From Caldilineae bacterium (GTDB lineage Bacteria > Chloroflexota > Anaerolineae > DTLA01): 35,528 nucleotides of DNA. Shown here piece by piece: positions 1,363-34,011 of this stretch. Position 1 is the stretch's first letter; the number at the start of each line of letters is the position of its first letter. The stretch lies in the NCBI GenBank assembly GCA_037446815.1, contig JBBIHX010000013.1, forward strand, positions 1 to 35,528. Reading direction: 5' to 3'. The position numbers and the translations under genes are program-made. Under the pieces are notes generated by a model that saw nothing but the letters and a program-made list of their open reading frames with translations, searched no databases and was not told the origin of the DNA.

Positions 1363-1459
1363 GAGGTTCCGACAAGGGCAAACCACGGGTGACCGTGGGA
1401 CGCAAAGCCACGGGTCTTGTGGCCTCCATCCCAAGATCGCCGGGCCGCCGAAGAACCTC
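1363..1459 (+). ncRNA. cyclic di-GMP-I (GEMM) riboswitch
   Basis: AAGGGCAAACC-ACGG-GTGA(GNRA loop)-CCGTGG-GACGCAAAGCCACGGGTCTTG...CAAGATCGCCGGGCCGCCGAA matches the c-di-GMP-I consensus; closing helix GAGGTTC (1363-69)/GAACCTC (1453-59); Vc2 G20/A47/C92 equivalents present. Confidence 0.92.
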
Positions 1460-11079: not shown

Positions 11080-11499
11080 CTAGATGAACAGCGTGATCTT
11101 GGAGTCCTTCGCCTCCTGGACGTAGGCCCCGACCGCGCCGTACTCGTCAATCCAGTCCTCGCGCAAGTCCTCTTTCTTCACGCCCATGATTTCCATGGTC
11201 ATCTCGCAGGCGATAATCTTGCCGCCGAGTTCGCGGAAGTCCTGGATCAACTTTTCCAACTTCGCCACGTTGGCCTGGCGCATCCGCCGTCGGATCATCC
11301 ACTTGCCCAGCCCCAGCAAGTGCATTTTGGACAGGGGGCCGCGCTCTAGCCCGTCCTTCTTCAGCCGCTGGAGCCCCCAGAAGGTAAAGTACAGGGACGC
11401 CTCCATTCCCATGGAGAGCGCCCCCGTTCCGATAATCAGCGCGCTGTAGACCTTATCGTAATCGCCGCTGTGCACGACGATGGTTGCCTTGTCGGCCAT
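11080..11499 (-). CDS. DsrE/DsrF/DrsH-like sulfur-relay (peroxiredoxin-family) protein
   Basis: HSGDYDK...LYFTFWGL...IIACEMTMEIMG...GAVGAY; AGGAGG before ATG 11499. Confidence 0.85.
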   Translation of the reverse strand: MADKATIVVHSGDYDKVYSALIIGTGALSMGMEASLYFTFWGLQRLKKDGLERGPLSKMHLLGLGKWMIRRRMRQANVAKLEKLIQDFRELGGKIIACEMTMEIMGVKKEDLREDWIDEYGAVGAYVQEAKDSKITLFI

Positions 11500-11518
11500 G
11501 GTTGGCCTCCTTATTGCG

Positions 11519-11743
11519 CTACTTGCGGATGCGAATCCTCCACGTCCCGTCATCCGCGTCGGTGATGTCCAGCAGTTGCAGGCCCAGGTTCTTGACCGCC
11601 ATGGGAATCTCGCGCTTGGAGGCCTGGTGCGTGCCGATGACCTCCACCACGTCGCCCTCGGCGGCCTTGCGCAGGGCCTTGCGCGTCTCAATCAGCGGAA
11701 TCGGGCAGGTCTCGCCCTTGACGTCCACGACAATATTGCCCAT
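11519..11743 (-). CDS. tusA: TusA/SirA-family sulfur carrier
   Basis: VDVKGETCPIP (CPxP) motif, 74 aa, GGAGGTG RBS. Confidence 0.88.
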   Translation of the reverse strand: MGNIVVDVKGETCPIPLIETRKALRKAAEGDVVEVIGTHQASKREIPMAVKNLGLQLLDITDADDGTWRIRIRK

Positions 11744-11770
11744 ATGCACCTCCCGGCGGGTATGGCCGCT

Positions 11771-12418
11771 CTACTCTTGCTCGTCGTCGTTGAAGATTAC
11801 CCGCACCTCGGCCACGTCCCACAGGGGCTCCAGGCGCTCGCGAATCTCCTGCTCAATGTTGTTGGCGAATTGGTGATCGCGGGTCAGGTCTACCCAGACG
11901 GTAACCACGCCGTTGCTCACGTCCATCTGCTTGACCACATGGGTCTTGACGATGTCCAAGCCGGTGAGCGGGTTCATCACGTGGCGCAGGCGCTTCTCCA
12001 CGACTTCCACGGTGGTGGGCTCGCGGTCGGCCACCAAGCCATGGCGCTCCTCGTAGTTGCGGATGGCGGCGCGCAGGGTGTCCACGGCCAGCACGGAGCA
12101 GTGCACCTTGACCGCCGGCAGGCCGCCCAGTTCCTCGGCGGCGGCCTTCCAGTTAATTTTGCGCGCCTCATCCAGCGTCTTGCCCTTGGCGAGTTCGGTG
12201 ATGATGGAGCCGGTGGCGATGTTGGATGCGCACCCGTAGGACTCAAACTTGATGTCCTGGATGGTCTTGGTCGCCTCGTCCACCTTCAGGTACAGGGTTA
12301 CCATGTCGCCGCAGGCGGGGCTGCCCTCGGTGGCCTTGGCGTCGTAGTCTTCCATGCGGCCCACGTTGCGCGGGTTCTTGAAATGCTCAATGACTTTTTC
12401 GCTGTATGGAATTGGCAT
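11771..12418 (-). CDS. iscU: IscU/NifU-N Fe-S scaffold fused to a C-terminal DUF59/MIP18-like domain
   Basis: YSEKVIEHFKNPRNVG, ACGD, GCAS, LPAVKVHC; extra C-terminal LRHVMNPLTGLDIV..V.VDLT domain. Confidence 0.85.
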   Translation of the reverse strand: MPIPYSEKVIEHFKNPRNVGRMEDYDAKATEGSPACGDMVTLYLKVDEATKTIQDIKFESYGCASNIATGSIITELAKGKTLDEARKINWKAAAEELGGLPAVKVHCSVLAVDTLRAAIRNYEERHGLVADREPTTVEVVEKRLRHVMNPLTGLDIVKTHVVKQMDVSNGVVTVWVDLTRDHQFANNIEQEIRERLEPLWDVAEVRVIFNDDEQE

Positions 12419-12437
12419 AAGGTCTGTCCTCCTATCG

Positions 12438-12505
12438 TTAGCCGTCAGCGGTCAGCCGTCAGCGATCAGCCATGCCTACGCTGACGGCTGACTGCTGTCC
12501 GCTAT
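12438..12505. repeat. 7-nt periodic tandem repeat followed by its inverse
   Basis: TTAGCCG TCAGCGG TCAGCCG TCAGCGA TCAGCC ... GCTGACG GCTGACT GCTGTCC GCTA. Confidence 0.8.
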
Positions 12506-13674
12506 TTCTCATCCTTGCCCAGCGGGCTGATGCGGCGCAGGGTCTCTATGACCTCCGCGGTCGCTTCTATGACGCGATCCACTTCCTCGGCCGTGTTGTA
12601 GCGGCTCAGCGAGTAGCGGATGGAGCCATGGGCGATTTCGTGGGTCTTGCCCATGGCCATCAGCACATAACTCGGCTCCAGCGAGCGGCTGAAGCAGGCC
12701 GAGCCGGTTACCACGGCGATGCCCATCATGTCCAGGTGCAGCAGGGTGGACTCGCCCTCGGCGTAGTGGAACGAGATGTTGACGTTGTTCGGCAGGCGGC
12801 GATAGCGCGGGCCGTTGAGTTCGGATTTCGGAATGCGCGCCATGATGCCGTCTATCAGGCGGTCGCGCAGGCTGGACATGTACTCCACCTGCGTGGCGCT
12901 GGTCAACTCCACGGCCTTGGCGAACCCCACGGCTCCGGGCACGTTCTCCACGCCGCCGCGCAGGTTGAACTCCATGAACCCGCCGTGCATCCACTTGGCG
13001 ATGGGCGTCCCCTCGCGGACGTACAGCGCGCCGATGCCCTTCGGCCCGTGAATCAAATGCGCCGTGATGGTTACCAGGTCGGCGGGCGTCTCGGCCAGGT
13101 TCAGCGGAACCTTGGTGAAGGTCTGCGAGGCGTCGGTGTGGAACGCCACGCCGCGCTCCTTCACGATGGCGGCGATGGCGTCTATATCCTGGATGGTGCC
13201 CACTTCCTCGTTGGCGTGCTGGATGGACACCAGGAACGTGTCGTCGGTGATGCTGGCGCGCAACTGCTCCAGGTCCACAAACCCCTCGCCGTCCACGTCT
13301 AGGTAGGTAACGCGGACGCCCTCTTTTTCAAGCGCTTGCGCGGTATCCAGCACGGACCGGGACTCAATCTTGGAGATGATGAGATGATTCTTTTTGCCGC
13401 GGAAGGCGCGGGCCATGCCTTTCAGGGCCCAGTTGTTGGACTCGGTCTCGCCGGACGTGAAGATGACCTCCTCGGGCTTGGCCGCGCCCAGGGCCTGGGC
13501 GATGGTGGCGCGGGCAGCATCCAGCGCCTCGCGGACCTCAATCCCGGGCGAGTGGCTGAACTGCGACGAGGCCACGGCGTATTTTTCGGTAAAGAAAGGC
13601 AGCATCGCTTCCACAACGGCAGGGTCCACCCGTGTGGTCGCGGCATTGTCCATGTAGATGATCCCGTCTTGCAT
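12502..13674 (-). CDS. iscS: IscS/NifS-like cysteine desulfurase homolog lacking the PLP-binding lysine
   Basis: YMDNAATT, FTSGETESNN, NEEVGTIQDI, HTDASQ, AH-L-IHGPKG, GSAC. Confidence 0.88.
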   Translation of the reverse strand: MQDGIIYMDNAATTRVDPAVVEAMLPFFTEKYAVASSQFSHSPGIEVREALDAARATIAQALGAAKPEEVIFTSGETESNNWALKGMARAFRGKKNHLIISKIESRSVLDTAQALEKEGVRVTYLDVDGEGFVDLEQLRASITDDTFLVSIQHANEEVGTIQDIDAIAAIVKERGVAFHTDASQTFTKVPLNLAETPADLVTITAHLIHGPKGIGALYVREGTPIAKWMHGGFMEFNLRGGVENVPGAVGFAKAVELTSATQVEYMSSLRDRLIDGIMARIPKSELNGPRYRRLPNNVNISFHYAEGESTLLHLDMMGIAVVTGSACFSRSLEPSYVLMAMGKTHEIAHGSIRYSLSRYNTAEEVDRVIEATAEVIETLRRISPLGKDEK

Positions 13675-13857: not shown

Positions 13858-13876
13858 AGCGGGGGCGGGCGCGACT

Positions 13877-14017
13877 CGGTTCCAAAGTCTGTTGGTGGCT
13901 GTCATTGCGAGGGCGCGGAGCGGCCGAAGCAATCTCCGGGGCGTGGGATGCTTCGCTTCGCTCGCAATGACACACGAGGAGGGTGCGCCTACGGTTCACC
14001 AACACAAGGTGGAACCG
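13877..14017 (-). repeat. about 141-bp MITE/REP-like element, copy A (inverted)
   Basis: Termini CGGTTCCA...TGGAACCG, internal GTCATTGCGAG...CTCGCAATGAC palindrome; aligns with 15268-15409 and 18739-18879. Confidence 0.85.
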
Positions 14018-14097
14018 AATCGCGGGCGGAATCCCATTGCGCCCATACGGGCGGGATGCCGTGAGGCGCGATGTGTGGGGCGGGATTCGCGCGCACC

Positions 14098-15159
14098 CTA
14101 CCACGACGCGGCCACTGCCACGGTGCGCGCGCCCTCCACCACCTCGCCCACGATCCAGTATGCCTGGCCCGCCTCGCGCAGGGCCGTCTCCAGCGCCGGC
14201 AGGTGCGCGGGGGGCACCGCGATGAGCAGCCCGCCCGATGTTTCGGGGTCGTACAGCAGCAGTTGCGTCTCGTCCGGGATGCCAGCCGCGAAGGATACAT
14301 GCGGCTTGTAGAACCGTTCGTTGTTGTACGCGCCGCCCGGGAAGACCCACTTGGCGGCGTATTCGTGCGCGCCCGGGAGGAAGGGCAGCGCCTCCAGGAC
14401 GAATCGCAGCCCCACGCCGCTGTTGGCCGCCATCTCCTGCGCGTGGCCCAGCAGGCCGAACCCGGTGATGTCGGTGGCTGCATGCACGCCGGCGGCCTGC
14501 ATGGCGCGCGCGGCGGCCTGGTTCAGGCGCAACATGCTGGCGGTCGCTGCGTCCACGTGGGCAGCATCGGCCAGGCCCTGCTTGAGCGCCGTCGTGATGA
14601 CGCCAACGCCCAGAGGCTTGGTCAGCACAAGGATGTCGCCAACTTGCGCGTTGCTCTTGGTGATGACCCTGGCCGGATGCACCGTGCCGGTTACGCACAG
14701 GCCGAATTTCGGCTCTTTGTCCTCCATGGTGTGGCCGCCGGCCAGCACCGCGCCTGCCTCGGCCACCTTGTCGCCCGCGCCGCGCAGGATGTCGCCGGCG
14801 ACCTCGGGCGGCAGGTCTGGCGGGAACGCGGCGATGCTCAACGCCAGCAGCACCTCGCCGCCCATGGCCCACACGTCGCTCATGGCGTTGACGGCGGCGA
14901 TGGCCCCGTAGGTGTAGGCGTCGTCCACCACCGGCGCGAAGAAGTCCAGCGTCTGGACGATGGCCAGATCCGGCGCAAGGCGGTACACGGCGGCATCGTC
15001 GGCCTTGCCGAGTCCAACGAGCAGGTCGGGGAACTGGGATTCTCGGAATGCGTCTTTTAGTGGCTGCAGAACCTGCGCCAGGGCCTCAGGCCCCATTTTG
15101 CCCGCTCAGCCCGCGCACGAGGCGAGGGCCGTCAGCCGTATCTTGTCGCGTTCGCTCAT
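14098..15159 (-). CDS. selD: selenide, water dikinase (selenophosphate synthetase), selenoprotein with Sec18
   Basis: Frame continues upstream of the called ORF: MSERDKIRLTALASCAG-UGA(15108-06)-AGKMGP; GGAG RBS; DDAAVY, QTLDFF, NAMSDVWAMGG, GGHT, TDITGFGLLGH, DPETSGGLL. Confidence 0.95.
15079..15095 (-). promoter_or_regulatory. bacterial SECIS-like hairpin in selD
   Basis: TGGGGCC-TGA-GGCCCTG at +11 to +27 after the UGA, G in the apical loop. Confidence 0.6.
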
Positions 15160-15248: not shown

Positions 15249-15267
15249 CCCCGCGGGGCGCGGGATT

Positions 15268-15409
15268 CGGTTCCATCTTGTGTTGGTGAAACGCATGGAC
15301 ACTTTCCTCGTGTGTCGTTGCGAGCGAAGCGAAGCAACCTCACGCCCCAGGGATTGCTTCGGGCGCTCCGCGCCCTCGCAATGACAAATACCAACAGACT
15401 TTGGAACCG
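15268..15409 (+). repeat. about 142-bp MITE/REP-like element, copy B
   Basis: Near-identical to 18739-18879; terminal inverted repeats. Confidence 0.88.
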
Positions 15410-15611: not shown

Positions 15612-15836
15612 CTACACGTCGCAGATGTCCTCAATCTCCAACCTCGCGGCCTCCAATGTGCGGCGAGCGGCATCCGCGTCGGCGCGGCCCACTCGCACGC
15701 ACACGCCGCAATCCGAACTGATGTGGCGCGGCACGGGGATCATCTTGCAGGCGATGCCCGCCGCCAAGAGCACCTTCTCCGCGCGGATGGCGTGGCTGGT
15801 GCTGGGGACGAGGATGACGGCGTACCCTTCGCTCAT
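15612..15836 (-). CDS. DUF3343-family small protein (putative Se/S carrier)
   Basis: STSHAIRAEKVL...IPVPRHISSDCG; ATGA overlap with the upstream gene. Confidence 0.82.
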   Translation of the reverse strand: MSEGYAVILVPSTSHAIRAEKVLLAAGIACKMIPVPRHISSDCGVCVRVGRADADAARRTLEAARLEIEDICDV

Positions 15837-16990
15837 CGTCGCGCCTCCCGCGCCAGTTCCGCCACGGCGGCCAGGGCGGCGTCTACCTCGTCGACCGTGT
15901 TGAATACGCCCATCCCGAATCGCACCGTGCCCACGGGGAACGTGCCGAGGGTCTTGTGCGCTGCCGGCGCGCAGTGCAGCCCCACGCGGCACAGGATGCC
16001 ATGCTCCTCGTCCAGGCGCAGGCCGACTTCCGACGGTTCCATGCCGGCGATGTTGAAGGAGACGGTCGCCGTCTGGCGCGCGGAGTCCAGCGGGCCGTAC
16101 ACCGTAACGCCGTCAATCTCCTGCAGCCCGTCCATGAGCCGCTGGGCGAGCGTCCTCTCATGAGCGCGGATGGCGTCCACGCCGCGCAGCATGACCCAGC
16201 GGATGCCCGCCTCCAGCCCCGCGAGGCCCACCGCGTTGGGCGTTCCGCTTTCCAGCATGTCGGGGAGGAAGTCCGGCTGCTCTTCGCGCTCGGAGCGGCT
16301 GCCTGTGCCGCCGCGGATGAGCGGCTCCATCTGCGAAACGTCCACGCGCTCCCCGACGATGAGCCCCCCGGTGCCCATAGGCCCCAGGAGCGATTTGTGG
16401 CCGGTGAAGGCGAGCAGGTCTATGCCGTCGGCCTGCACGTCAATGGGATAGGCCCCGGCCGTCTGCGCCGCGTCCACCAGGAGCAGAAGGCCCCGCGCGC
16501 GGGCGATGCGTCCCACCTCGCGCACCGGCAGGATGGTGCCACTCACGTTGGAGGCGTGATTCAGGACGATCATGCGGGTATTGGGACGGATGGCGGCCTC
16601 CACATCGGCGGGGTTCAGGGCGCCTTCGGGTGAGCAGCGCACCACGGTCAGCCCCACGCCCTCGCGCTCTAGCGCGCGTAGCGGGCGCATGACCGAGTTG
16701 TGCTCCATGGAACTGGTAATGACGTGGTGGCCCGGGCGCAGCAACCCGCGCATGGCCATGTTGAGCGCCGCGGTAACGTTGGCGGTGAAGGCGACGCGGA
16801 GCGGGTCGGGCGCGTTGACGAGTTCGCAGATGGCCTCGCGGGCGGCGTACACGATGCGGCCCGATTCCACCGCCAGGCGGTGCGCCGAGCGGCCCGGGTT
16901 TGCGCCGACTTCGCGCAGGAAGTGGGGCATCGCCTCGGCGACTTCCGGCGGCTTGGGCCACGAGGTTGCGGCGTTGTCAAAGTAGATCAC
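15833..16990 (-). CDS. class V aminotransferase, cysteine desulfurase / selenocysteine lyase-like
   Basis: MIYFDNAATSWPKP, EHNSV, HASNV, DAAQ, GHKSLLGP (PLP Lys intact), RVGLHCAP. Confidence 0.9.
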   Translation of the reverse strand: MIYFDNAATSWPKPPEVAEAMPHFLREVGANPGRSAHRLAVESGRIVYAAREAICELVNAPDPLRVAFTANVTAALNMAMRGLLRPGHHVITSSMEHNSVMRPLRALEREGVGLTVVRCSPEGALNPADVEAAIRPNTRMIVLNHASNVSGTILPVREVGRIARARGLLLLVDAAQTAGAYPIDVQADGIDLLAFTGHKSLLGPMGTGGLIVGERVDVSQMEPLIRGGTGSRSEREEQPDFLPDMLESGTPNAVGLAGLEAGIRWVMLRGVDAIRAHERTLAQRLMDGLQEIDGVTVYGPLDSARQTATVSFNIAGMEPSEVGLRLDEEHGILCRVGLHCAPAAHKTLGTFPVGTVRFGMGVFNTVDEVDAALAAVAELAREARR

Positions 16991-17073: not shown

Positions 17074-17286
17074 CTAATTGCGCCTCTCCAGCGTCAGTTT
17101 GAAGCCGTCGCCCGATGGCTCAACGCGCACGTTGAGACCGAAGCGTTCGGCCATGCGCCGCACGTTCTCGCGCGAGGTTACGGTGTCCACCAGGACTTCT
17201 ACGGGGAATTGTCCTTTGTCAACGGCTTGCTTGGCCAGCATAACCGGCTGCGGGCACGAGAGTCCGCGTGCGTCCACAGTAACCAT
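17074..17286 (-). CDS. TusA/YedF-family carrier protein
   Basis: MVTVDARGLSCPQPV; GGAGGTG RBS; directly after yedE. Confidence 0.88.
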   Translation of the reverse strand: MVTVDARGLSCPQPVMLAKQAVDKGQFPVEVLVDTVTSRENVRRMAERFGLNVRVEPSGDGFKLTLERRN

Positions 17287-17287
17287 T

Positions 17288-18415
17288 TTACACCTCCGAG
17301 GTTGTTTTGGCGCGCATCGTGAAGCCGATGAGCATGCAGAGCACAAGCCCGATGATGACTGCCCACTGGCCATAGGGCGTGAGGCCACCCACCTTGACCA
17401 CGCCATCCACGACCGTATCGGGCGTGCCCGCCAGCGCGAAGTTGTGCGAGAACCCGGCTCCGACGATCATGCCGATGACGAAGATGCCGGCGTCGCCGTC
17501 GCCCTCACCGGCCAGAAACAGCTGTCGTCCGGGGCACCCGCCTGCCAGTGCGAAGGCCAGCCCGGCCAGGGACATGCCCAGGAAGTTCCACAAGTGGCTA
17601 GAATGGGCCGTAGGCTGGGGCGAGAAGCCGACCTTCACCTGGCCCAACGCCAGGTTCGTGAGGAACGCAACCACGAGGAGCGCGCCGACGCCGCTGATAA
17701 GGTGGGTGTCGCGCATCAGGATGACATCGCGGATGGAGCCCATGGTGCAGAACCGTGTGCGCTGGGCGAGGAAGCCGATGATGAGGCCCGCTCCCAAGGA
17801 GATCAGGATGGGCGCGTGGAGCGAGCCTGGCCCGCTCTTGCTGAAGAATATTGCGCCATCCTTCGTGAACTGTGGACGCAAGATCAGGAGGAGGAGCAGG
17901 CTCAACATGAAGATTGGCATGATCCAGCCGACAGCGGTGTGGGTCCTTTGGGCGCGGCCCAGGTTATACCCGGCCTTCAGGAACAGCACGCCGACGGTGA
18001 TACCGGCAGTCAGCCCGGCCAGGCCCAGAATCGCGTTCAGGTCCCCGCCCGCCAGTCGCAACAGCGCCCGCCACGGGCAGCCCAGGAACGCCAGGGCGCC
18101 GATCATGGCGAACATCCCCAGGAAGAAGCGGACGATGGGAGCCGAGCCCGCGCGCGGCTTGAACTCCTTGAACAGAAGCGCCGCAATCAAGGAGCCGAGC
18201 ACGAAGGCGATGATCTCCGGGCGGATGTACTGCACCGCAGCGGCTCGGTGCAGCCCCAACGCCCCTGCGATGTCCCGCTCAAAGCAGGCCACGCAGATGC
18301 CCATGTTGGGCGGATTGCCGGCCTTCTGGAGCAGGGGAGCCAGAAGGCCGATGGCTGCCCCGGCCAGGATAATCCCCCAGCGCGAGGCAAAGAAGCGGGT
18401 GAGTCGTTCGGTCAT
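17288..18415 (-). CDS. yedE: YedE-family putative selenium transporter
   Basis: GNPPNMGICVACFERDIAG, YIRPEI, GCPWR, RFCTMG, GGCPGRQ; multi-TM; AGGAGG before ATG 18415. Confidence 0.9.
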   Translation of the reverse strand: MTERLTRFFASRWGIILAGAAIGLLAPLLQKAGNPPNMGICVACFERDIAGALGLHRAAAVQYIRPEIIAFVLGSLIAALLFKEFKPRAGSAPIVRFFLGMFAMIGALAFLGCPWRALLRLAGGDLNAILGLAGLTAGITVGVLFLKAGYNLGRAQRTHTAVGWIMPIFMLSLLLLLILRPQFTKDGAIFFSKSGPGSLHAPILISLGAGLIIGFLAQRTRFCTMGSIRDVILMRDTHLISGVGALLVVAFLTNLALGQVKVGFSPQPTAHSSHLWNFLGMSLAGLAFALAGGCPGRQLFLAGEGDGDAGIFVIGMIVGAGFSHNFALAGTPDTVVDGVVKVGGLTPYGQWAVIIGLVLCMLIGFTMRAKTTSEV

Positions 18416-18473
18416 GGCACGCACCTCCTGTTGATGTATTCTCCACGCGGTCGGATGACGCTCCGCTGTGGGC

Positions 18474-18510
18474 AACAGAAAACCGCTGCCATCACGCGCT
18501 GGCAGCGGCC
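18474..18510 (-). terminator. intrinsic terminator (attenuator) in the yedE leader
   Basis: Minus strand CCGCTGCCA-GCGCGTGA-TGGCAGCGG-TTTTCTGTT about 60 nt before the yedE start. Confidence 0.8.
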
Positions 18511-18533
18511 CAGGAGGTCGCGGCTAGTTGAGC

Positions 18534-18641
18534 CTAGGGCGCGGTTCCGACGCCGCACCCCAGCGCGGGATGGCCGGCCTGTGGGCGCCAACTGGCACCC
18601 AAGGCTATGCCTCATGTGCGGCGACGAACCACCTTGTACAC
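18534..18641 (-). CDS. putative selenocysteine-containing leader peptide MYKVVRRRT-U-GIALGASWRPQAGHPALGCGVGTAP
   Basis: GAGGAG (18654-49), 7 nt, GTG 18641; UGA codon 10 at 18614-12 followed by SECIS-like hairpin; TAG 18536-34 just before the terminator. Confidence 0.7.
18577..18605 (-). promoter_or_regulatory. bacterial SECIS-like hairpin in the leader peptide
   Basis: GCCT-TGGGTGCC-AGTT-GGCGCCCA-c-AGGC; loop GU at +20/+21 from the UGA. Confidence 0.7.
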
Positions 18642-18691
18642 GTTGGCTCTCCTCGTCCGATTTTCCGGATGGTCTCATTCGGTCTGGGGTG

Positions 18692-18719
18692 ATTATAGCA
18701 CGCTCTGGGCAAAATGCAA
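18692..18719 (-). promoter_or_regulatory. promoter of the yedE operon
   Basis: TTGCAT-16nt-TATAAT with TG extension. Confidence 0.72.
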
Positions 18720-18738
18720 CTTCATCCGTCGCCGGCGT

Positions 18739-18879
18739 CGGTTTCATCTTGTGTTGGTGAAAAGCATGAGCACTCTCCTCGTGTGTCGTTGCGAGCGAAG
18801 CGAAGCAACCTCACGCCCCGGGGATTGCTTCGGGCGCTCCGCGCCCTCGCAATGACAAATACCACAGACTTTGAAACCG
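18739..18879 (+). repeat. about 141-bp MITE/REP-like element, copy C
   Basis: Termini CGGTTTCA...TGAAACCG; partial copy also at about 47-94. Confidence 0.88.
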
Positions 18880-24763: not shown

Positions 24764-24807
24764 CGCCCCAGGGTTTGTGAACCCTGACACCAACGATGGA
24801 GGTTGGC

Positions 24808-25164
24808 GTGCAAGACAACTACGGCTTCCTCGGCTTGTACCTGCTCATCGCCATTGCCTTCCCCTTTGTGGCTTTGGGCGTGGCGTACCTCCTTCGGCCC
24901 AAACGGCCCGACCCCGTGAAGTCTTCCACATACGAGTGCGGCCTTGAAACCATCGGCGAGACGTGGGTTCAGTTCAAGGCGCAGTACTATCTGTTCGCGC
25001 TCGTGTTCGTGGTGTTTGACGTGGAGACGGTGTTCCTGTACCCGTGGGCGGTGGCCTACAATCAGTTGGGGCTGTTCGCCTTGGTAGAGGCGCTGATCTT
25101 CGTGGGGATTTTGGTCGCGGGCCTGGCCTATGCCTGGCGCAAGGGCGCGCTCCGCTGGATGTAG
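24808..25164 (+). CDS. nuoA: NADH-quinone oxidoreductase subunit A
   Basis: [26 protein letters not shown] start after GGAGG. Confidence 0.95.
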
Positions 25165-25202
25165 CGCCCGATTGCGTGGTATCTGTCGCGTTGGGAGAAC
25201 GT

Positions 25203-25724
25203 ATGTTTGAGGATGACGCAATTCCCGTAGAGCAAATTGACCGCAACGTGTTCCTGACCACGGTGGACTGGATTTACAACTGGGGCCGGCAGTATTCCAT
25301 GTGGCCGACGATGTTCGGGTTGGCGTGCTGCGCCATTGAGATGATTGGCGCTTCCACGGCGCGCTACGACATCGCGCGGTTTGGCATGGAGTTCTACCGC
25401 GCATCCCCGCGCCACGCCGACCTGATGATTGTGGCGGGCACCATCACCCACAAGATGGCGCCCCAGGTCAAGCGCATCTGGGACCAGATGCCCGAGCCCA
25501 AGTATTGCCTCGCCATGGGCTCGTGCGCCATCAGCGGCGGCATCTTCAAGTCGTATGCCGTGCTCCAGGGGGCCGACGAGATTCTGCCCGTGGACGTGTA
25601 CGTGCCCGGGTGCCCGCCCCGCCCCGAGGCCCTGTTTGACGGCATCCGCAAGATTCACCAGATGGTGCGCGCCCAGTCCATCAAGACCGTTCGCTGGTAT
25701 CGCAATGAGAAGCAACAAGCCTAG
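25203..25724 (+). CDS. nuoB: NADH-quinone oxidoreductase subunit B
   Basis: [30 protein letters not shown]. Confidence 0.95.
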
Positions 25725-25792
25725 CGCCGGCGCACTCGACACGTGCTTTGGCGCTTCTGTTTGCGCTGATGCCTATCCGGAGAGGTAGAGCA

Positions 25793-26290
25793 GTGACCAA
25801 CGAAGAAATCCTGGCAAAATTGCAAGAGGCGTTCCCGGATGTCGCGCTCCGAGTCCAGACGGAGGAGACGAAGGATTTCACCCTCATCGTCCCCGCCGAG
25901 CGCCTGGTGGACGTGGCGACCCATCTCCGCGACCATCTGGGGTTTGACTACCTGTCCAACGTTACCAGTGTGGATTACCCCGACCGTTTTGAGGTTGTGT
26001 ATCACCTGTTCAGCATGAAGCGCGGCGGGGGCGTCCTCACGCTCAAGGTGCACCTGCCCGACAAGGAGCACCCGGTGGTGGACTCCGTAACGCCCATCTG
26101 GCCGGGGGCCAACTACCAGGAGCGCGAGGTGTATGACCTGATGGGCATCTCCTTCCGCAATCACCCGGACCTGCGCCGCATCATGCTGTGGGACGGCTTC
26201 CCGGGGCACCCCCTGCGGAAGGATTTTGAGAATCGGACGTACACGTACAAAGAATTGGAGCCCACCCGCCCCAAGCCGCCAAACTGGTAG
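25793..26290 (+). CDS. nuoC: NADH-quinone oxidoreductase subunit C
   Basis: FEVVYHL, EREVYDLMGI.F..HPDLRRI, GHPLRKDF. Confidence 0.95.
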   Translation: MTNEEILAKLQEAFPDVALRVQTEETKDFTLIVPAERLVDVATHLRDHLGFDYLSNVTSVDYPDRFEVVYHLFSMKRGGGVLTLKVHLPDKEHPVVDSVTPIWPGANYQEREVYDLMGISFRNHPDLRRIMLWDGFPGHPLRKDFENRTYTYKELEPTRPKPPNW

Positions 26291-26338
26291 GCGCGGCCAG
26301 GCTCATCACGCTTGATTCCGAGAAACAGCGGGGGAACA

Positions 26339-27439
26339 ATGCTAAAGACCGAGACGATCACAGTCAACATGGGGCCTCAACACCCCAGCACCCACGGCGT
26401 CTTCCGCATGATCCTGACCCTGAACGGGGAAACCATCGTGGACCTCAAGCCGATGTTCGGCTATCTCCACCGCGGGCTGGAGAAGACCAGCGAGAGCCGA
26501 ACGTACTTGCAGGCCGTCCCGTTCACCGACCGCCTGGACTACATCTGCTCCATGAGCAACAACTTCGCCTACGCGGTGGCGGTGGAGAAACTGGCGGGGA
26601 TTGAGGTGCCCCTGCGCGCCGAGTACATCCGCGTCATCATGGCGGAACTCACCCGTCTGGTCAACCACATGCTGGCCGTCGGGTTCCTGTTCAACGACCT
26701 GGGCGCGTGGTACACGCCCGTGGTCTACGCGTTCCGCGAGCGCGAGCGCATCCTGGACCTGTTTGAGATGGCGAGCGGCTCCCGCATGATGTGCAACTAC
26801 ATTCGCCCGGGCGGCGTCTCGGCCGACCTGCCGGCGGACTTCCTCCCGCTCCTGCGGAAGATGATTCCCCACCTGGAGAACTTCGTCCGCGAGATTCGGT
26901 TCTACCTGTCGGACAACGAGATATTCCGGGCCAGGGCCATAGGCGTGGGGTTCCTGCCCGCGGATGTGGCGGTGGCCTACAGCATCACCGGGCCTGTGCT
27001 GCGGGCGTCTGGCGTGAAGTACGACGTGCGCAAGGCCGAGCCGTACTCCATCTACGACCAGTTTGAGTTTGACGTGCCCACCCAGGTGGCGGGGGATGTC
27101 TACGCCCGCTATCTCCAGCGCCTGGACGAGATGGACGAGAGCCTGAAAATCCTGAGGCAGGCCGTGGAGCGCATCCCCGACGGGGAGTACGCCACCAAGG
27201 TCCCGTCGCGCCTGCGCCCGCCCAAGGGCGAAGCCTACGCCCGCATTGAGGCGCCCAAGGGCGAACTGGGGTTCTACCTGGTCAGCGACGGTTCGCCGAA
27301 CCCGTACCGCTGGCGCAACCGCCCGCCGTCGCTCATCAACCTGTCGGCGCTGCGCGAGATGTGCCTGGGGCACAAGGTGGCCGACGTGGTTACCATCCTG
27401 GGAAGCATTGACATTACCCTTGCCGATGTAGACCGCTGA
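26339..27439 (+). CDS. nuoD: NADH-quinone oxidoreductase subunit D
   Basis: [38 protein letters not shown] end. Confidence 0.95.
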
Positions 27440-27449
27440 TGGGGGAGAT

Positions 27450-28637
27450 ATGCAAGTTCTAGATGACCTCTGGATACGAATCGCACAGTGGTTCCGCGGC
27501 GTCCTGGAGTCGTTCCTGCCGCCTTGGGCCGTACAGTTGACGATGGATTTGCTGGGCATCGTGCTGCTCCTTGCGTTCGGCGTGGTCGTCGTGCTCGTGT
27601 TCACGTACATGGAGCGCAAGGTCATCGCCCGGGTGGGAGACCGCCTCGGCCCCAACCGCGCCGGGCCGTTCGGCGTCTTGCAGGCCTTCGCCGACGCCAT
27701 CAAGATGCTCACGAAGGAGGATGTTACGCCGACGAACGCCGACCGTTGGCTGTTCCTGGCCGCGCCAATCATCGTCATCATCCCCGCCGTGCTGCTGTAC
27801 GCCGTGCTCCCCTTTGGGCGCGGGATGGTGGGGGTGGACCTCAGCATCGCCGTCGTGTTCGTTGTGGCGATGGGGGGCATTCCCATCCTGTCCATGCTGA
27901 TGGCCGGCTGGGCCTCCAACAACAAGTATGCGCTCCTAGGCGGGTTCCGAACCGTGGCGCAACTCATCAGTTACGAGATTCCGATGGTGGTGGCGCTGCT
28001 CACTGTGGTTCTGCTGGCCGGCACCATGTCCACCGTCGGCATCGTGGAGGCGCAGGCGTCGTTCCCGTTTGCCCTGGTAACGCCCGCGGCCTTCATCGTG
28101 TACATGGTAGCGGGGCTTGCGGAATTGAACCGCACGCCCTTTGACCTGCTGGAGGCGGACTCGGAGATTGTGGCCGGCTACTTCATTGAGTACAGCGGCA
28201 TGAAGTTCGCCATGTTCTTCCTCGCCGAGTTCATCAACCTGTTCATGGTAGCGGGCATGATCACCACCCTGTTCTTGGCGGGATGGCAGTGGCCCATTCT
28301 CCCCTCGTGGCTGTGGTTCCTCATCAAGACGGTCGCGGTGATTTTCGTGATTATGTGGATTCGTTCCACAATCCCGCGCTTCCGCATTGATCAGATGCTG
28401 AGTTTCGCGTGGAAGGCGCTTGTGCCGGTGTCGCTGGTCAACCTGTTCCTGGTCGCGCTCGTGGCGAAGTTGCTAGCGCCGGGCTGGGCGCGCACGGGCG
28501 TGCTGTTCGTGAGCAACCTGGCGCTGCTTGCGGGGGCCATGGCCATCATGCAGTACAACGCGCGCAAGCAGGAGCAGCGGGCGCGGGCCGCGGGCGAAGC
28601 CGCCATCAAGCGCTATTACGGCAGCGAGGTTCGTTGA
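27450..28637 (+). CDS. nuoH: NADH-quinone oxidoreductase subunit H
   Basis: ERKV..R.GPNRAGPFG.LQ..AD.IK..KE, SNNKYALLGG, NRTPFDL.EADSE. Confidence 0.95.
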   Translation: MQVLDDLWIRIAQWFRGVLESFLPPWAVQLTMDLLGIVLLLAFGVVVVLVFTYMERKVIARVGDRLGPNRAGPFGVLQAFADAIKMLTKEDVTPTNADRWLFLAAPIIVIIPAVLLYAVLPFGRGMVGVDLSIAVVFVVAMGGIPILSMLMAGWASNNKYALLGGFRTVAQLISYEIPMVVALLTVVLLAGTMSTVGIVEAQASFPFALVTPAAFIVYMVAGLAELNRTPFDLLEADSEIVAGYFIEYSGMKFAMFFLAEFINLFMVAGMITTLFLAGWQWPILPSWLWFLIKTVAVIFVIMWIRSTIPRFRIDQMLSFAWKALVPVSLVNLFLVALVAKLLAPGWARTGVLFVSNLALLAGAMAIMQYNARKQEQRARAAGEAAIKRYYGSEVR

Positions 28638-28644
28638 GGTGGAT

Positions 28645-29175
28645 ATGTACGGGAAGGGCATCGCCAAGGGCCTCTGGGTTACCCTGAAGCACATCTGGGG
28701 AACCTACGCCAAAGACATCAAGAAGTTTCCCCGACGCTACGCCCCTGGCGGCATCGCCAAGCGTACCGAGTACGACCTGTACGGGCTGTTCACGCTCCAG
28801 TATCCGGAGGAGCGATATGAGATGTTCCCGCGGTTTCGCGGGGCGCTCATGCACCTGCGCAATCCGGAGACCGGCGAGCCGAATTGCACGGCGTGCGGCG
28901 CTTGCGAGCGGGCTTGCCCCCACGGCGTCATCACCGTAGAGGGCGAGGGTAAGGGGAAAGACCGCAAAGTTACAGCCTACCGGTACGACCTGGGCCGCTG
29001 CATCTTCTGCCGCCTGTGTGTGGAGTCGTGCAACTTCAACGCCATTGAGATGAGCCGCGAGTACGAACTCTCGCGCTACAAGAAGGACTTCATTCTGGAG
29101 TTGGACGACTTGCTGAAGATCGGCGACAAGTACGGCATCCACAAGACCGGTGAGGCGTGGGGGGTTACGGAATGA
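28645..29175 (+). CDS. nuoI: NADH-quinone oxidoreductase subunit I
   Basis: TLQYPEE, CTACGACERACP and CIFCRLCVESC 4Fe-4S motifs. Confidence 0.93.
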   Translation: MYGKGIAKGLWVTLKHIWGTYAKDIKKFPRRYAPGGIAKRTEYDLYGLFTLQYPEERYEMFPRFRGALMHLRNPETGEPNCTACGACERACPHGVITVEGEGKGKDRKVTAYRYDLGRCIFCRLCVESCNFNAIEMSREYELSRYKKDFILELDDLLKIGDKYGIHKTGEAWGVTE

Positions 29176-29663
29176 GCCTGCCGCAGATCGTTTTTCTCGC
29201 AGTCGGACTGATTACCTTGGGGGCGGCGGTGGCCGTGGTAACCAGCCGCAACGTGCTCCACAGCGCGTTCCTGCTGGCGCTGACGTTTTTCGGCGTGGCC
29301 GTGCTCTACGTGCTGCTGGATACGCCGTACCTGGCGGCCGCCCAGGTGCTGGTGTACATCGGCGCCGTCTCGGTGCTCATTATCTTCGCCATCATGCTGA
29401 GCCGCAAGGTGGCCGCGCCTGATTTGGTGCAGCGCAATAGCCAGTGGCTCCTGGCGCTCATCGTGGCGGTGCTGCTGTTCGGGGCGCTGGCCTACCTCAC
29501 GCTCCAGGCGGCCTGGCCCGCGGCCAAGCAGGCGCTGGGCGTGGATGCCATCGGCGGGCTGGGGCAGGCGTTCGTGGGCACCTACGCCTTGCCGTTTGAG
29601 GTGGTGTCGGTCGTCTTGCTGGTGGCCCTGGTCGGCGCCATCATCATCGCGCGCGAGCGATAG
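29172..29663 (+). CDS. nuoJ: NADH-quinone oxidoreductase subunit J
   Basis: QVLVYIGAVSVL, LPFEVVS. Confidence 0.93.
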   Translation: MSLPQIVFLAVGLITLGAAVAVVTSRNVLHSAFLLALTFFGVAVLYVLLDTPYLAAAQVLVYIGAVSVLIIFAIMLSRKVAAPDLVQRNSQWLLALIVAVLLFGALAYLTLQAAWPAAKQALGVDAIGGLGQAFVGTYALPFEVVSVVLLVALVGAIIIARER

Positions 29664-29676
29664 CGGGAGTAGCCAT

Positions 29677-29985
29677 ATGATTCCTCTGTCCTGGTTTCTA
29701 ATCCTGGGGGCGGCGCTGTTCTGCATCGGCATGTACGGCGTCCTGTCCCGCCGCAACGCCATCGGCATTCTGATGGGCGTGGAACTCATCCTGAACGCCG
29801 TGAACGTGAACCTGATTGCCTTCTGGCGCTATCGGACGCCCGATCACCTGACGGGCTTGGTGTTTGCGGTGTTCGTCATGGCCATCGCCGCCGCCGAGGC
29901 CGCGGTCGGCTTGGCGCTCATCATCGCCATCTACCGCACGCGCAACACTGTGATCGTGGAAGATGTGGATTTGCTGAAAATGTAA
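29677..29985 (+). CDS. nuoK: NADH-quinone oxidoreductase subunit K
   Basis: LMGVELILNAVN, AAAEAAVGLA. Confidence 0.95.
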   Translation: MIPLSWFLILGAALFCIGMYGVLSRRNAIGILMGVELILNAVNVNLIAFWRYRTPDHLTGLVFAVFVMAIAAAEAAVGLALIIAIYRTRNTVIVEDVDLLKM

Positions 29986-29990
29986 GCAGG

Positions 29991-30102
29991 AGCCATTAGC
30001 CTCTAGCCCTTGGCCTTTAGCCCCTAGCCCTTGGTTGGCAGTGGGACTAATGGCTCTATCGGCCAAAGGCTAAAGGCTAACGGCTAACGGCTAGAGGCTA
30101 AC
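29991..30102. repeat. 7-nt periodic tandem repeat and its inverse between nuoK and nuoL
   Basis: (TAGCCNN)n followed by (GGCTAAN)n. Confidence 0.85.
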
Positions 30103-30123
30103 CGTCCGAACATCCAAGCGGGA

Positions 30124-32181
30124 GTGAACTCACCGATGACAGAACTGTTTGACTGGGTACGACTGATACCGCTCTTTCCGTTTCTGGCGTTCGCGATCAT
30201 CCTGCTGTTCACCCAGCGCAACCAGAAACTGAGCACGTATCTGGCGTGGGTCGGGATCGGGCTGGCGTGGATTCTGGGCTGGACGATTGCCTTCCGCGCC
30301 ATGGCCGATCCGCATGTCCTGGAAGAGGGATTCCGCGCGCCCATCTTCGCCATCCCGACGGGGCGCGGCCTTCTGGAACTGGGCTTCCAGGTGGACGCCC
30401 TCACAACGGCCATGCTGTTCATGGTTCCGTTCGTGTGCCTGATGATCTTCATCTACTCCAAAGGGTACATGCACGGCGACCCGCGCTACTCGCGGTTCTT
30501 CGCCTACGTCTCGCTGTTCGCTACGGGCATGCTCGGTCTCATCGTGTCCGATAACTTGCTGCTGCTGTACATCTTCTGGGAAGTCATGGGGCTGTGCTCC
30601 TACCTGCTCATCGGGTTCTGGTTTGAGAAGCCGTCGGCGATGAAGGCGGGGCTGAAGGCGTTCATCACCACGCGCATCGGCGATGTTATCATGTTCCTGG
30701 GCATGCTCCTGCTGTACTCCACGACGGGCACGCTCAGTTTCCACGAGATTTTCTCGGAGGAGACGCTCCACTTCCTGAAGGAGACGATGGTCTGGGTGCC
30801 GCTGGTGGGCACGGTGCCGGTGGCGCCTGTGATCGCGATCCTTCTGTTCGGCGGGGCGGTGGGCAAGTCGGCCCAGTTCCCGCTACACGTGTGGCTTCCC
30901 GACGCCATGGAAGGCCCCACGCCGGTCTCGGCCCTCATCCATGCGGCCACGATGGTGTCGGCGGGCGTGTACCTGGTAGCCCGCATGTTCCCCATCTTCG
31001 CGCTGCTGCCCGAGACGGCGTCCATGTCGGTTGTCGCCTTCATCGGCGGGTTCACGGCGCTGTTTGCGGCGACCATCGCCCTGGCGCAGGACGACATCAA
31101 GCGCGTGCTGGCCTACTCCACCATCAGCCAACTGGGCTACATGATTGCGGCGCTGGGCGTGGGCGCGTATGTGGCGGCCACGTTCCACCTCATTACCCAC
31201 GCCTTCTTCAAGGCGCTGCTGTTCCTCGGCTCCGGCTCTGTGATTCACGGCGCGGGGACGCAGGACATGATGGAGATGGGCGGCCTGCGCAAGAAGATGC
31301 CCATCACGTTCTGGACGTTCCTGGTGGGCATGTTGGCGCTGGCGGGGGTTCCGCCCTTCGCGGGCTTCTGGAGCAAGGACGAAATCCTGGCCCACGCCTT
31401 TGAGGAGTTCCTGCACAAGGGCGTGGCGTCGTGGCCGTTCTTCGTGTGGCTGGTGCTGTCGCTGGGCGCGCTGCTGACGGCGTTCTACATGGCGCGGCAG
31501 GTGTTCCTCACCTTCTACGGCGAGACCCGCTCGCATCACATGCACGCCCACGAAAGCCCGAAGGTGATGACCTACCCGCTCATCGCCCTGGCGGTCTTCG
31601 CGGCCTTGCTCGGGTTCGCGGGCGTCCCGGAGGAGTTCCCGGTGCTGGGGCCGCTGTTCGGGCACAACTTCTTCCATCACGTGGTGGGCCACGCCTACCC
31701 GGCCACGCCGCTGAATTGGGGCGTGATGGGGCTGTCGGTGCTGCTGGCGCTGACGGGCCTGTTCTTGGGGTGGGTGGTGTACGGGCGCAACCCGCTGAAG
31801 CACGGCCAGCCCGACCCGTTGACCAAATTGGGGCCGATGTACACGCTGCTGCGCAACAAGTACTACATTGACGAGTTCTACAGCAAGGTCATCGTGCGGC
31901 CTGCCGTGGCCCTTGCCACCCTGCTGTTCCGCTTTGACAACTCGTGGGTGGTGGATCCGTTCGTCAACCTGGTGGGCAAAGTCGGCGTCTGGCTGTCGGA
32001 CCTGGGGCGCATCTTTGACCTGAACATCATAGACGGCATCGTCAACGGCGTGGCGGCCGTAACCGCGTGGTTCGGCAAGATTCTGCGCCTGACCCAGACC
32101 GGCAAGGCCCAGAACTACTTGCTGGTCGCCGTGTTGACGGTCCTGTTGTTGCTGGGATTGTATCTCTACCTGCCCATGTAG
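30124..32181 (+). CDS. nuoL: NADH-quinone oxidoreductase subunit L
   Basis: WEVMGLCSYLLIGFW, GKSAQFPLHVWLPDAMEGPTPVSALIHAATMV, HAFFKALLFL; start 30124 or 30136. Confidence 0.95.
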   Translation: MNSPMTELFDWVRLIPLFPFLAFAIILLFTQRNQKLSTYLAWVGIGLAWILGWTIAFRAMADPHVLEEGFRAPIFAIPTGRGLLELGFQVDALTTAMLFMVPFVCLMIFIYSKGYMHGDPRYSRFFAYVSLFATGMLGLIVSDNLLLLYIFWEVMGLCSYLLIGFWFEKPSAMKAGLKAFITTRIGDVIMFLGMLLLYSTTGTLSFHEIFSEETLHFLKETMVWVPLVGTVPVAPVIAILLFGGAVGKSAQFPLHVWLPDAMEGPTPVSALIHAATMVSAGVYLVARMFPIFALLPETASMSVVAFIGGFTALFAATIALAQDDIKRVLAYSTISQLGYMIAALGVGAYVAATFHLITHAFFKALLFLGSGSVIHGAGTQDMMEMGGLRKKMPITFWTFLVGMLALAGVPPFAGFWSKDEILAHAFEEFLHKGVASWPFFVWLVLSLGALLTAFYMARQVFLTFYGETRSHHMHAHESPKVMTYPLIALAVFAALLGFAGVPEEFPVLGPLFGHNFFHHVVGHAYPATPLNWGVMGLSVLLALTGLFLGWVVYGRNPLKHGQPDPLTKLGPMYTLLRNKYYIDEFYSKVIVRPAVALATLLFRFDNSWVVDPFVNLVGKVGVWLSDLGRIFDLNIIDGIVNGVAAVTAWFGKILRLTQTGKAQNYLLVAVLTVLLLLGLYLYLPM

Positions 32182-32258
32182 TGATTTCCTGGCGCGCGTA
32201 ACAAGTTGACAACTTGTCCTACACCGAGAACTTGTGGGGAACCGAGGAGGAAGCATAG

Positions 32259-33761
32259 ATGGATTTTCCCATACTGACCGTGATCACGTTCGTACCGCTG
32301 CTGGGCAGCCTCATCGTCCTGTGCATGCCCAAGGAGAGGGAGCGGCTCATCAAGCAGTTCTCCATCGCCGTTTCCTTCATCCCGCTCATCCTGTCCATCT
32401 TGCTGTGGGTCAATCTGGACAAGGACGCGGGCATCCAGTTTGAGGAACTGGTGGCCTGGATTCCGGCGATTCACGTGAACTACCACGTGGGGGCCGACGG
32501 GCTGAGCGTTCCGCTCATCTTCCTCACGGCATTGCTGACGACGCTGTCGCTCTTCTACTCGTCGTTTACCATCAAGAACAGGGTCAAGGAGTTCTTCTTC
32601 CTGTTCTTGTTGCTGGAAATGGGGATGTTCGGCGTGTTCGTGTCGCTGGACTTCGTGCTGTTCTACGTGTTCTGGGAGATCGGCCTGGTGCCCATGTACT
32701 TCCTCATCGGGGTGTGGGGCGGGCCGCGCCGAGAGTACGCCGCCATCAAGTTCTTCCTCTACACGCTGGTGGGCAGCGTGGCCATGCTGTTGGCGATTAT
32801 CGGCATCTACCTGAACACGGGCACGTTTGACATCATCCAGGCGGCGGCGCTGCGTCCGTTCGTGGAGAACTTCACGCTGGGGGCGCTGGCGTTCTGGGCC
32901 ATCTTCCTGGCCTTCGCCATCAAGGTGCCCATGTTCCCGTTCCACACCTGGCTTCCGGATGCTCACGTAGAGGCGCCCACGGCGGGCAGCGTGATCCTTG
33001 CCGGCATCCTGCTGAAGTTGGGCTGCTACGGCTTCTTCCGCATCCTGCTGCCCATGTTCCCGGAGCAGTTCCACTACTTCGCGCCCGTGGTGGCCGTGCT
33101 GGCCGTGATTAGCATTGTGTACGGCGCGATGGTCTCCATGGCGCAGTGGGACCTCAAGAAACTCATCGCCTACTCCTCGGTGAGCCACATGGGATACGTG
33201 ATGCTGGGCCTGGCCGCGGCGGCGTTTGCGCTGGGTTCCAAGGACATGCTCACGAGCCAGGCGATTGCCATGAACGGCGCGGTGTTCCAGATGTTCAACC
33301 ACGGGATTATCACGGGCGCGTTGTTCTTCCTCGTCGGCGTCATCTACGAGCGCGCCCACACCCGCGACCTGAAGGCCTTCGGCGGCCTCGCCAGCAAGGT
33401 CCCGTACTACTACGGCATCATGTTGGTGGCGGGTTTGGCGTCGCTGGGGCTGCCCGGCTTGGCGGGGTTCTGGGGCGAGTTCTTCGTGTTCCGCGGGACG
33501 TTCGCCATCGCGCCGGTGTATGCGGCCGTGGGCGTCATCGGCATTGTGTTCACCGCCGCGTACATCCTGTGGAAGGTGATTCAGCACGTGTTCCTGGGCC
33601 CCTTCAACGAGAAGTGGGCAGACCTTCGCGATATGGATACCTATGAGAAGATCACGCTGTGGCCGCTGGTGGGCTTCATGGTGCTGTTCGGCCTGTACCC
33701 GCCGCTGATTGTGGACACGATCAACGCGGCGATGACGCGGTTGCTGTCCGGGCTTATGTAG
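32259..33761 (+). CDS. nuoM: NADH-quinone oxidoreductase subunit M
   Basis: FYVFWE, KFFLYT, KVPMFPFHTWLPDAHVEAPT, AYSSVSHMG. Confidence 0.95.
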   Translation: MDFPILTVITFVPLLGSLIVLCMPKERERLIKQFSIAVSFIPLILSILLWVNLDKDAGIQFEELVAWIPAIHVNYHVGADGLSVPLIFLTALLTTLSLFYSSFTIKNRVKEFFFLFLLLEMGMFGVFVSLDFVLFYVFWEIGLVPMYFLIGVWGGPRREYAAIKFFLYTLVGSVAMLLAIIGIYLNTGTFDIIQAAALRPFVENFTLGALAFWAIFLAFAIKVPMFPFHTWLPDAHVEAPTAGSVILAGILLKLGCYGFFRILLPMFPEQFHYFAPVVAVLAVISIVYGAMVSMAQWDLKKLIAYSSVSHMGYVMLGLAAAAFALGSKDMLTSQAIAMNGAVFQMFNHGIITGALFFLVGVIYERAHTRDLKAFGGLASKVPYYYGIMLVAGLASLGLPGLAGFWGEFFVFRGTFAIAPVYAAVGVIGIVFTAAYILWKVIQHVFLGPFNEKWADLRDMDTYEKITLWPLVGFMVLFGLYPPLIVDTINAAMTRLLSGLM

Positions 33762-33777
33762 GGACGCGGCCGGGGGC

Positions 33778-33971
33778 GAGATTCTTCGCTTCGCTCGGAA
33801 TGACAGATGGGGGCGGGGGTTCTCGCTCCGCGTGGGATGGCAAGACGGTTTGTGTCATGCTGAGCGGCGGAGCCGCGAAGCATCTCGGGAGGCGAGATTC
33901 TTCGCTTCGCTCAGAGATTCTTCGCTTCGCTCAGAATGACAGATGGGGGGCGGGGGCTCTCGCTCCGCGTG
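33778..33971. repeat. REP-like direct repeats between nuoM and nuoN
   Basis: 57/58-bp near-identical copies at 33778-33834 and 33914-33971; tandem 20-mer GAGATTCTTCGCTTCGCTCA at 33894-33933. Confidence 0.88.
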
Positions 33972-34011
33972 AAATCAGAAGGGACGCACCATCGTTTGTG
34001 GAGGGTGTGCA

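Follow-up and report, generated by a model that had tools for sequence, protein, structure and literature searches.

Candidate selenocysteine-sensing leader-peptide attenuator ahead of the yedE selenium genes in an Anaerolineae genome

In the Anaerolineae contig analyzed here (the window, 35,528 nucleotides), a short upstream ORF (uORF) with its own ribosome site, a UGA codon, a hairpin of SECIS geometry, and an open frame of ~25 codons precede a run of selenium genes that begins with yedE. The same genes are also preceded by an antiterminator and a terminator whose helices covary and exclude one another. This arrangement suggests that the leader is a selenocysteine (Sec)-sensing leader-peptide attenuator that turns the operon on when Sec is low, a reading to which a probability of roughly 0.8 is assigned on sequence evidence. 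Translation of the uORF, insertion of Sec, dwelling of ribosomes at the UGA, and a steric or kinetic block imposed when a ribosome occupies the antiterminator loop are the steps that we infer.

In the proposed mechanism, when Sec-tRNA·SelB is plentiful, Sec would be inserted at the UGA, and the ribosome would cross the 5′ strand of the antiterminator and stop within the antiterminator loop; with that strand covered, the terminator would fold and yedE-tusA-lyase-DUF3343 would be switched off. When Sec-tRNA is scarce, ribosomes would dwell at the UGA and cover region 1 (the codons before it), leaving the antiterminator free, so that the operon would be transcribed. The dwell may reflect slow release, perhaps aided by the conserved Thr at position −1 and by successive ribosomes loading onto the short uORF. 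The peptide product itself is probably irrelevant, except for the residues ahead of the UGA.

Table 1. Leader elements and downstream genes, with their positions in the window
Feature	Positions	Strand	Basis or remarks
Candidate sigma70-type promoter	18692..18719	-	Read directly; promoter function predicted
Shine-Dalgarno site of uORF, GAGGAG	18649..18654	-	Read directly; ~-9 kcal/mol vs anti-SD motif
Leader uORF: MYKVVRRRT (9 codons), UGA, 25-codon read-through extension, UAG	18534..18641	-	
Region 1 (codons before UGA), anti-antiterminator strand, partner 18558-18543	18616..18630	-	Minimum-energy fold
Control codon UGA (selenocysteine or stop)	18612..18614	-	UGA conservation and SECIS geometry; Sec decoding putative
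SECIS-type hairpin, loop AGUU 18593-18590 (+19..+22 after UGA)	18577..18605	-	
Antiterminator 5′ strand, within read-through frame	18552..18574	-	
Intrinsic terminator: stem 18509-18482, tail to 18474	18474..18509	-	
yedE, putative selenium transporter	17288..18415	-	TIGR04112, 492 bits, cut-off 200
TusA-domain protein (N-terminal half of YedF)	17074..17283	-	PF01206; TIGR03527 under its cut-off
Cysteine desulfurase family, selenocysteine-lyase-like	15833..16990	-	TIGR01977 over cut-off; NF040779 SclA 400 bits vs cut-off 525
DUF3343 / Se-S carrier protein	15612..15836	-	PF11823
selD, itself a selenoprotein gene, UGA 15108-15106	14098..15159	-	

The first-pass annotation had read a promoter, a ribosome site, a uORF, and a UGA in that order on the minus strand, and every one of these features was found where it had been placed (Table 1). 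The promoter candidate comprises a −35 hexamer TTGCAT (18719-18714), a 16-nt spacer, and a −10 hexamer TATAAT (18697-18692) within an extended −10 element (TG-c-TATAAT). It was not called by a consensus scanner, and its −35 hexamer agrees at only three of six positions; the hexamers ahead of yedE leaders from the same genus (n = 3) resemble its own. The uORF starts with GTG at 18641 and ends with UAG at 18536-18534, for a total of 35 codons when Sec is counted.

The hairpin that had been drawn directly 3′ of the UGA folds as proposed, with an energy of −27.2 kcal/mol that was equalled by 2 of 200 shuffles, and the stretch from the UGA to the U-tail has a folding z of −4.2 (0 of 200 shuffles as good). 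Its position directly behind an in-frame UGA, with a loop G at decoding distance, is that of a SECIS element; in the same genome, the SECIS loop lies at +19 in fdhA and in a second molybdo-enzyme gene, the loop G of the selD hairpin is also at +19, and the loop of the FlpD gene is more distal (~+24). Rfam gave no match to the leader element at gathering score, SECIS families included, which is a weak test because, according to the available text of a preprint (10.64898/2026.09.15.751765), only 9 of its top 100 SECIS-like regions fall in two such families. Further downstream, the duplex between 18574-18552 and 18509-18488 has a predicted energy of −40.6 kcal/mol, matched by 2 of 20,000 random genomic 23-mers. 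Its 3′ strand consists of the 5′ arm and loop of the intrinsic terminator, so that the two folds exclude one another, as had been claimed. The terminator was called by a purpose-built finder (−20 kcal/mol, tail UUUCUGUU, U-richness only moderate) and was not called by the consensus scanner. A third, anti-antiterminator helix (18630-18616 × 18558-18543), absent from the first-pass annotation, coexists with the terminator in the fold of the full leader. No additional copy of the leader was found in this genome by covariance model, the next match scoring 17 bits vs 63.

The conservation of the leader was examined across upstream regions of yedE, a gene detected in 96 of 401 class genomes and in 80 named records; the closest named relatives of the YedE protein are 92-94% identical and come from records titled Anaerolineae or Chloroflexota. 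From 187 yedE loci, 148 distinct upstream regions were obtained and scanned for a ribosome site, a short ORF, and a hairpin, with all three stop codons handled alike. A best candidate was returned for 104 of the 148 regions, and its stop was UGA in 98 (a few of which are mis-picks of a second UGA), UAA in 5, and UAG in 1. The background from a similar genome-wide scan was UGA in 22 of 51 (43%), a hairpin following 22 of 1570 UGA short ORFs and 25 of 1266 UAG short ORFs. Ninety leaders were retained under a rule requiring UGA and a loop at +17..+22, and all later counts on them are therefore conditional on this rule. The loop is at +19 in 55 of the 90, the position of the fdhA SECIS loop in this genome. 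UGA position and hairpin are thus conserved in orthologous leaders, a check that the first-pass annotation had proposed. Among the 58 dropped regions, a relaxed rule gave 24 candidates, ~16 of which were judged real by eye; at least seven more of these regions have another gene ending 15-17 nt ahead of yedE. Among the titles of records with retained leaders are Armatimonadia, Fermentibacteria, Eisenbacteria, Spirochaetales, and Desulfobulbaceae, and those under the relaxed rule include Leptospirales, Syntrophorhabdaceae, Bacteroidia, and Moduliflexus, all of them metagenome bins.

Covariation was assessed in an alignment, built by sequence alone, of 43 terminator-type leaders that were author-selected out of 72. 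Of the 16 antiterminator pairs, 10 show two-sided changes, and 91.9% of cells are paired; none of 500 shuffles reached this level of pairing, and slid controls gave at most 53%. Several of the covarying antiterminator pairs use the loop of the terminator, a part on which the terminator fold places no constraint. On a tree built from the first 330 nt of yedE, the nine core antiterminator pairs underwent 20 same-branch changes, compared to a null mean of 6.7 and maximum of 13 over 717 mismatched pairings. Two-sided changes were also found in 10 of 13 pairs of the SECIS-type hairpin and in 6 of 8 of the terminator (together 16 of 21), bearing out the helix covariation that the first-pass annotation had proposed as a check, while the third helix covaries less (6 of 10 pairs, 82% of cells paired). 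Chance or artefact as the origin of the leader is rejected on this covariation together with the conservation.

Across the 90 leaders, the uORF before the UGA is 7-9 codons long in 75 and starts with ATG (43), GTG (41), or TTG (6). The frame behind the UGA ends at 20-40 codons in 82 leaders, compared to 24 and 23 for the other two frames, and its closing stop varies (UGA 53, UAG 28, UAA 9). Among the 16 terminator leaders with non-modal spacing, the closing motif is in frame in 10, which is modest support, and these leaders are related. A programmed frameshift at the UGA was rejected, as no conserved slippery sequence was seen and the following base is G in 34, A in 26, T in 21, and C in 9. 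The sequence of the extension peptide is not conserved across leaders, which would suit a switch operating by SelB binding without read-through, in which the UGA is an ordinary stop and SelB·GTP·Sec-tRNA on the hairpin alters folding or ribosome release. Such a mechanism is known from E. coli, where SelB bound to a SECIS-like element in the selAB leader (Thanbichler and Bock 2002) represses translation, as described in the available text of PMC13449736. The likeness extends to the use of a SECIS as a sensor of SelB·GTP·Sec-tRNA and to repression when Sec-tRNA is plentiful, and leaders without a terminator could operate in this way. However, the E. coli hairpin lies 3 bases from the selA ribosome site, with no uORF, UGA, or terminator described in the available text of the same source, while the hairpin described here ends ~150 nt before the yedE ribosome site. 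Moreover, it stays outside both competing helices in the stalled and terminator folds, holds its decoding distance from the UGA, and is followed by a frame that is open up to a fixed region, making SelB binding without read-through improbable.

The family uORF usually terminates in H-R-R-T ahead of the UGA. Threonine occupies −1 in 64 of 78 single-UGA leaders, whereas among long ORFs of this genome it does so in 17 of 470; since the leaders are related, these 64 cases are not 64 independent events. According to the available text of PMC7246954, bacterial C-termini are depleted in Thr at −1, a residue that belongs to a termination-stalling motif, and in a Mycoplasma assay this Thr was not accompanied by lowered expression. 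Both this motif and the retention of H-R-(R/Q/K)-T with several synonymous codons in leaders without a terminator are compatible with a signal other than Sec, namely release factor 2 activity, a ligand acting via the H-R-R-T nascent peptide (TnaC-type), or near-cognate reading of the UGA, with the hairpin aiding a pause. This is considered very unlikely, given that the geometry of the hairpin is that of the SECIS elements of the same genome and that most targets either are selenium genes or encode selenoproteins in a Cys version. The control codon also matches the supply function of the operon, as UGA stands ahead of selenium genes and is tandem (UGA-NNN-UGA) in 12 of the 90 retained leaders, with apparently at least two origins. 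Tandem codons are carried by L025, L027, L034, L042, L044, L046, L061, L078, L094, L143, L175, L179, L185, and L188, and would either raise the Sec threshold or block read-through and leave the operon always on.

To relate ribosome position to fold, ribosome states were modelled as equilibrium folds with assumed footprints. For the yedE leader of the window, the modelled probability of the terminator is 0.00 with a ribosome at the UGA and 0.98 once a ribosome has reached the middle of the extension, reproducing the polarity that the first-pass annotation had predicted from the two conformers. With the ribosome at the final stop, the value is 0.98 if nothing pairs across it and 0.02 if such pairing is allowed, so that the OFF state holds only if a steric or kinetic block is assumed. 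Family medians (n = 60) are 0.02 stalled, 0.95 in read-through, 0.97 at the final stop, 0.69 with spanning allowed, and 0.83 ribosome-free. In the stalled state, 32 of 60 terminator leaders fall below 0.1 but 18 still terminate (P > 0.5); with spanning allowed at the final stop, 35 of 60 keep P > 0.5. Thus, given the steric assumption, the models agree on fold selection by ribosome position for this leader and most relatives, with 18 of 60 unswitched.

The same models bear on polarity. Sec might be sensed with selenium as the ON signal, if read-through and release re-open the antiterminator, or with no fixed polarity, as a setting of basal level. The antiterminator is indeed favored in the ribosome-free and spanning-allowed folds of this leader (P of the terminator 0.02 in each), and selenium raises transcription of fdhF in Treponema primitia via coupling (PMC3892789, available text). 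This is nonetheless rated the least probable reading of all, as the antiterminator strand lies within the read-through frame, its masking leads to termination in 56 of 60 leaders, and a Cys-version operon is among the targets. Without a ribosome, the RNA of 39 of 60 relatives terminates by way of the third helix. Therefore, while the exclusivity of the folds and their polarity held for the first-pass annotation, its expectation that a UGA-to-UAA change would leave the operon always on is unsafe, and the ON state probably needs ribosomes dwelling on the uORF.

An attenuator with a terminator, as originally described, applies to 60 of the 90 leaders; in the other 30, no intrinsic terminator was found by the rule used. 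In these, the modelled accessibility of the yedE ribosome site changes weakly and inconsistently (medians 0.28 stalled and 0.15-0.24 in read-through), and anti-SD pairing is visible in few (e.g., L034, L035, and L197). Translational attenuation may be the general output of the 30, although the effect on ribosome-site access is weak overall.

A covariance model of the 5′ module of the leader was searched in this genome, 151 class genomes, and 150 further phylum genomes, giving strong matches (E ≤ 1.6e-4) in 30 of the 151 and matches in 7 of the 150. Leaders L251, L253, and L254 precede a lyase-like gene or selD, and L252 and L272 precede apparent YedF/DsrE-type genes, as judged from sequence, a family search having given no match. 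In G093, a leader stands before a Cys-version hdr-hdrA-mvhD operon, and a second operon there has UGA in both genes. The targets selD, lyase, and Cys-version hdrA-mvhD fit induction at low selenium. L250 and L253, both outside the set used for model building, behave as predicted (0.00 stalled, 0.99-1.00 in read-through), and the leader of the Cys-hdrA operon shows no modelled switch (P of the terminator 1.0 in all states). Leaders L250, L269, L270, and L273 precede genes for double-cubane reductases (NF040772) in four genomes (three belong to a single genus that is not in the class), a hint that this double-cubane-cluster enzyme is linked to selenium. Weak matches (E > 2e-4), of which 13 of 22 were inspected, are mostly coding or antisense noise. 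Two of them are SECIS elements of HdrA genes (L257 and L265), apparent selenoprotein genes that the leader model also detects, and another, L260, is apparently a true leader. L260 (G135:C77:6862-6919, minus strand) has H-H-R-Q-T-UGA and a long hairpin and precedes the binding-protein gene of an Opp-type ABC transporter operon, making this transporter a candidate importer of a selenium compound. Two further observations came from this search. L249 (G046:C76:2363-2452) is a second leader copy, behind selB and before an MntA-type antitoxin gene, 2.7 kb ahead of the yedE leader, and L274 (G513:C12:2508-2595, minus strand) marks an apparent small selenoprotein that has U-D-S-C as a motif close to its start and by eye resembles ArsC/Spx-type proteins.

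The genome under study is 93.6% complete, and selA, selB, tRNA-Sec, and selD were all found in it, in keeping with the Sec machinery on which the first reading of the leader depended. Among yedE genomes, selB scores over its cut-off in 91 of 95, and the remaining four carry tRNA-Sec and selA; no selA was detected in three leader-bearing bins (G093, G537, and G550). Since most genomes of the class encode selA (131 of 151), as do 25 of 27 other yedE genomes, co-occurrence of Sec genes with the leader does not discriminate.

Downstream of the leader, the gene order is yedE, TusA-domain gene, Sec-lyase-like desulfurase, DUF3343, a 135-nt repeat, and selD. The last gene has a promoter-like site of its own (15248-15219) and therefore may lie outside the attenuated unit at this locus. 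Its in-frame UGA (15106-15108, minus strand) is accompanied by a C-A-G-U motif and a hairpin behind, and a plain ORF list begins selD too late, at 15096. The intergenic repeat, a REP/MITE-type element by appearance, occurs in three copies (15259-15393, 18730-18864, and 13873-14027; 93% identity, one inverted) that flank the selenium genes, and one of them (18730-18864) ends 11 nt upstream of the leader promoter. Elsewhere in the window, a separate nifS/iscS-nifU-tusA-dsrE2 cluster (11080-13674, minus strand) lies just downstream of selD, with a promoter-like site at 13857-13829. A c-di-GMP-I-GGC riboswitch (1368-1453, plus strand; RF03167, 68 bits) precedes a tandem pair of subtilase genes whose products carry SVNWG pentapeptide repeats at the C-terminus; next comes a GGDEF/HD-domain gene. 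An NADH-quinone oxidoreductase-like gene run (24796-35478, plus strand) was assigned from translations alone.

Attenuators of the trpL, hisL, and thrL type combine a short uORF, control codons, three alternative helices, and an intrinsic terminator. The yedE leader shares with them the uORF and control codon, which is tandem in some copies, as well as the three helices, the terminator, and predicted read-through under starvation. In contrast, its control codon would be a stop recoded with the aid of a SECIS and SelB, in competition with release factor 2, and it would govern uptake and handling of a trace element, while the trp and his systems govern amino-acid synthesis. Leader-peptide attenuators of amino-acid operons are outlined in the available text of PMC3892789, where attenuation by a rare amino acid was unreported in nature as of 2013. 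In the synthetic attenuators of Liu et al. cited there, incorporation of a rare (unnatural) amino acid also drives attenuation, by engineering. The same text describes fdhF-Sec of T. primitia, in which translation of a Sec-UGA is likewise coupled to transcription elongation; there, however, the coupling acts inside a selenoprotein gene, has the opposite sign (low selenium truncates), and involves neither a dedicated leader nor an antiterminator. LysR_Se and HrsM (PMC5322559, available text) also confer selenium-dependent control on selenium genes and Cys-version enzymes but are protein repressors, whereas the yedE leader is RNA. Reviews of selenium status name LysR_Se/HrsM as the candidate regulator and, in their available text, no leader; nor does such a leader appear in the available text of PMC9312934, PMC5322559, PMC8124441, or preprint 10.64898/2026.09.15.751765. 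The first-pass annotation knew of no described Sec leader-peptide attenuator, and no published natural Sec-sensing leader was found in a search that covered mostly literature outside subscription journals, with the supplements of PMC11109978 and PMC8632094, which could list the motif, outside its scope. Thus, the conserved leader apparently represents an unpublished form of leader-peptide attenuation.

The broader view, with a slightly better than even chance of being correct, is that of a multi-phylum family of Sec-sensing leaders defining a selenium-starvation regulon. Here, a uORF-UGA-SECIS module would be wired to a terminator or, elsewhere, to translation, and would be tuned by tandem UGAs and by the Thr-before-stop pause; it would turn on uptake, selD, and Cys back-ups, and the double-cubane reductase and the Opp-type ABC transporter would be selenium-related. 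How bacteria sense their selenium status is poorly known. If the proposed mechanism is true, the principle of classical attenuation would reach to recoded stop codons, with the 21st amino acid as the signal read by a natural leader, which would also provide regulatory evidence for YedE as a selenium importer. The leaders would likewise point to further selenium-linked genes and offer a compact genetic reporter of Sec-tRNA supply.
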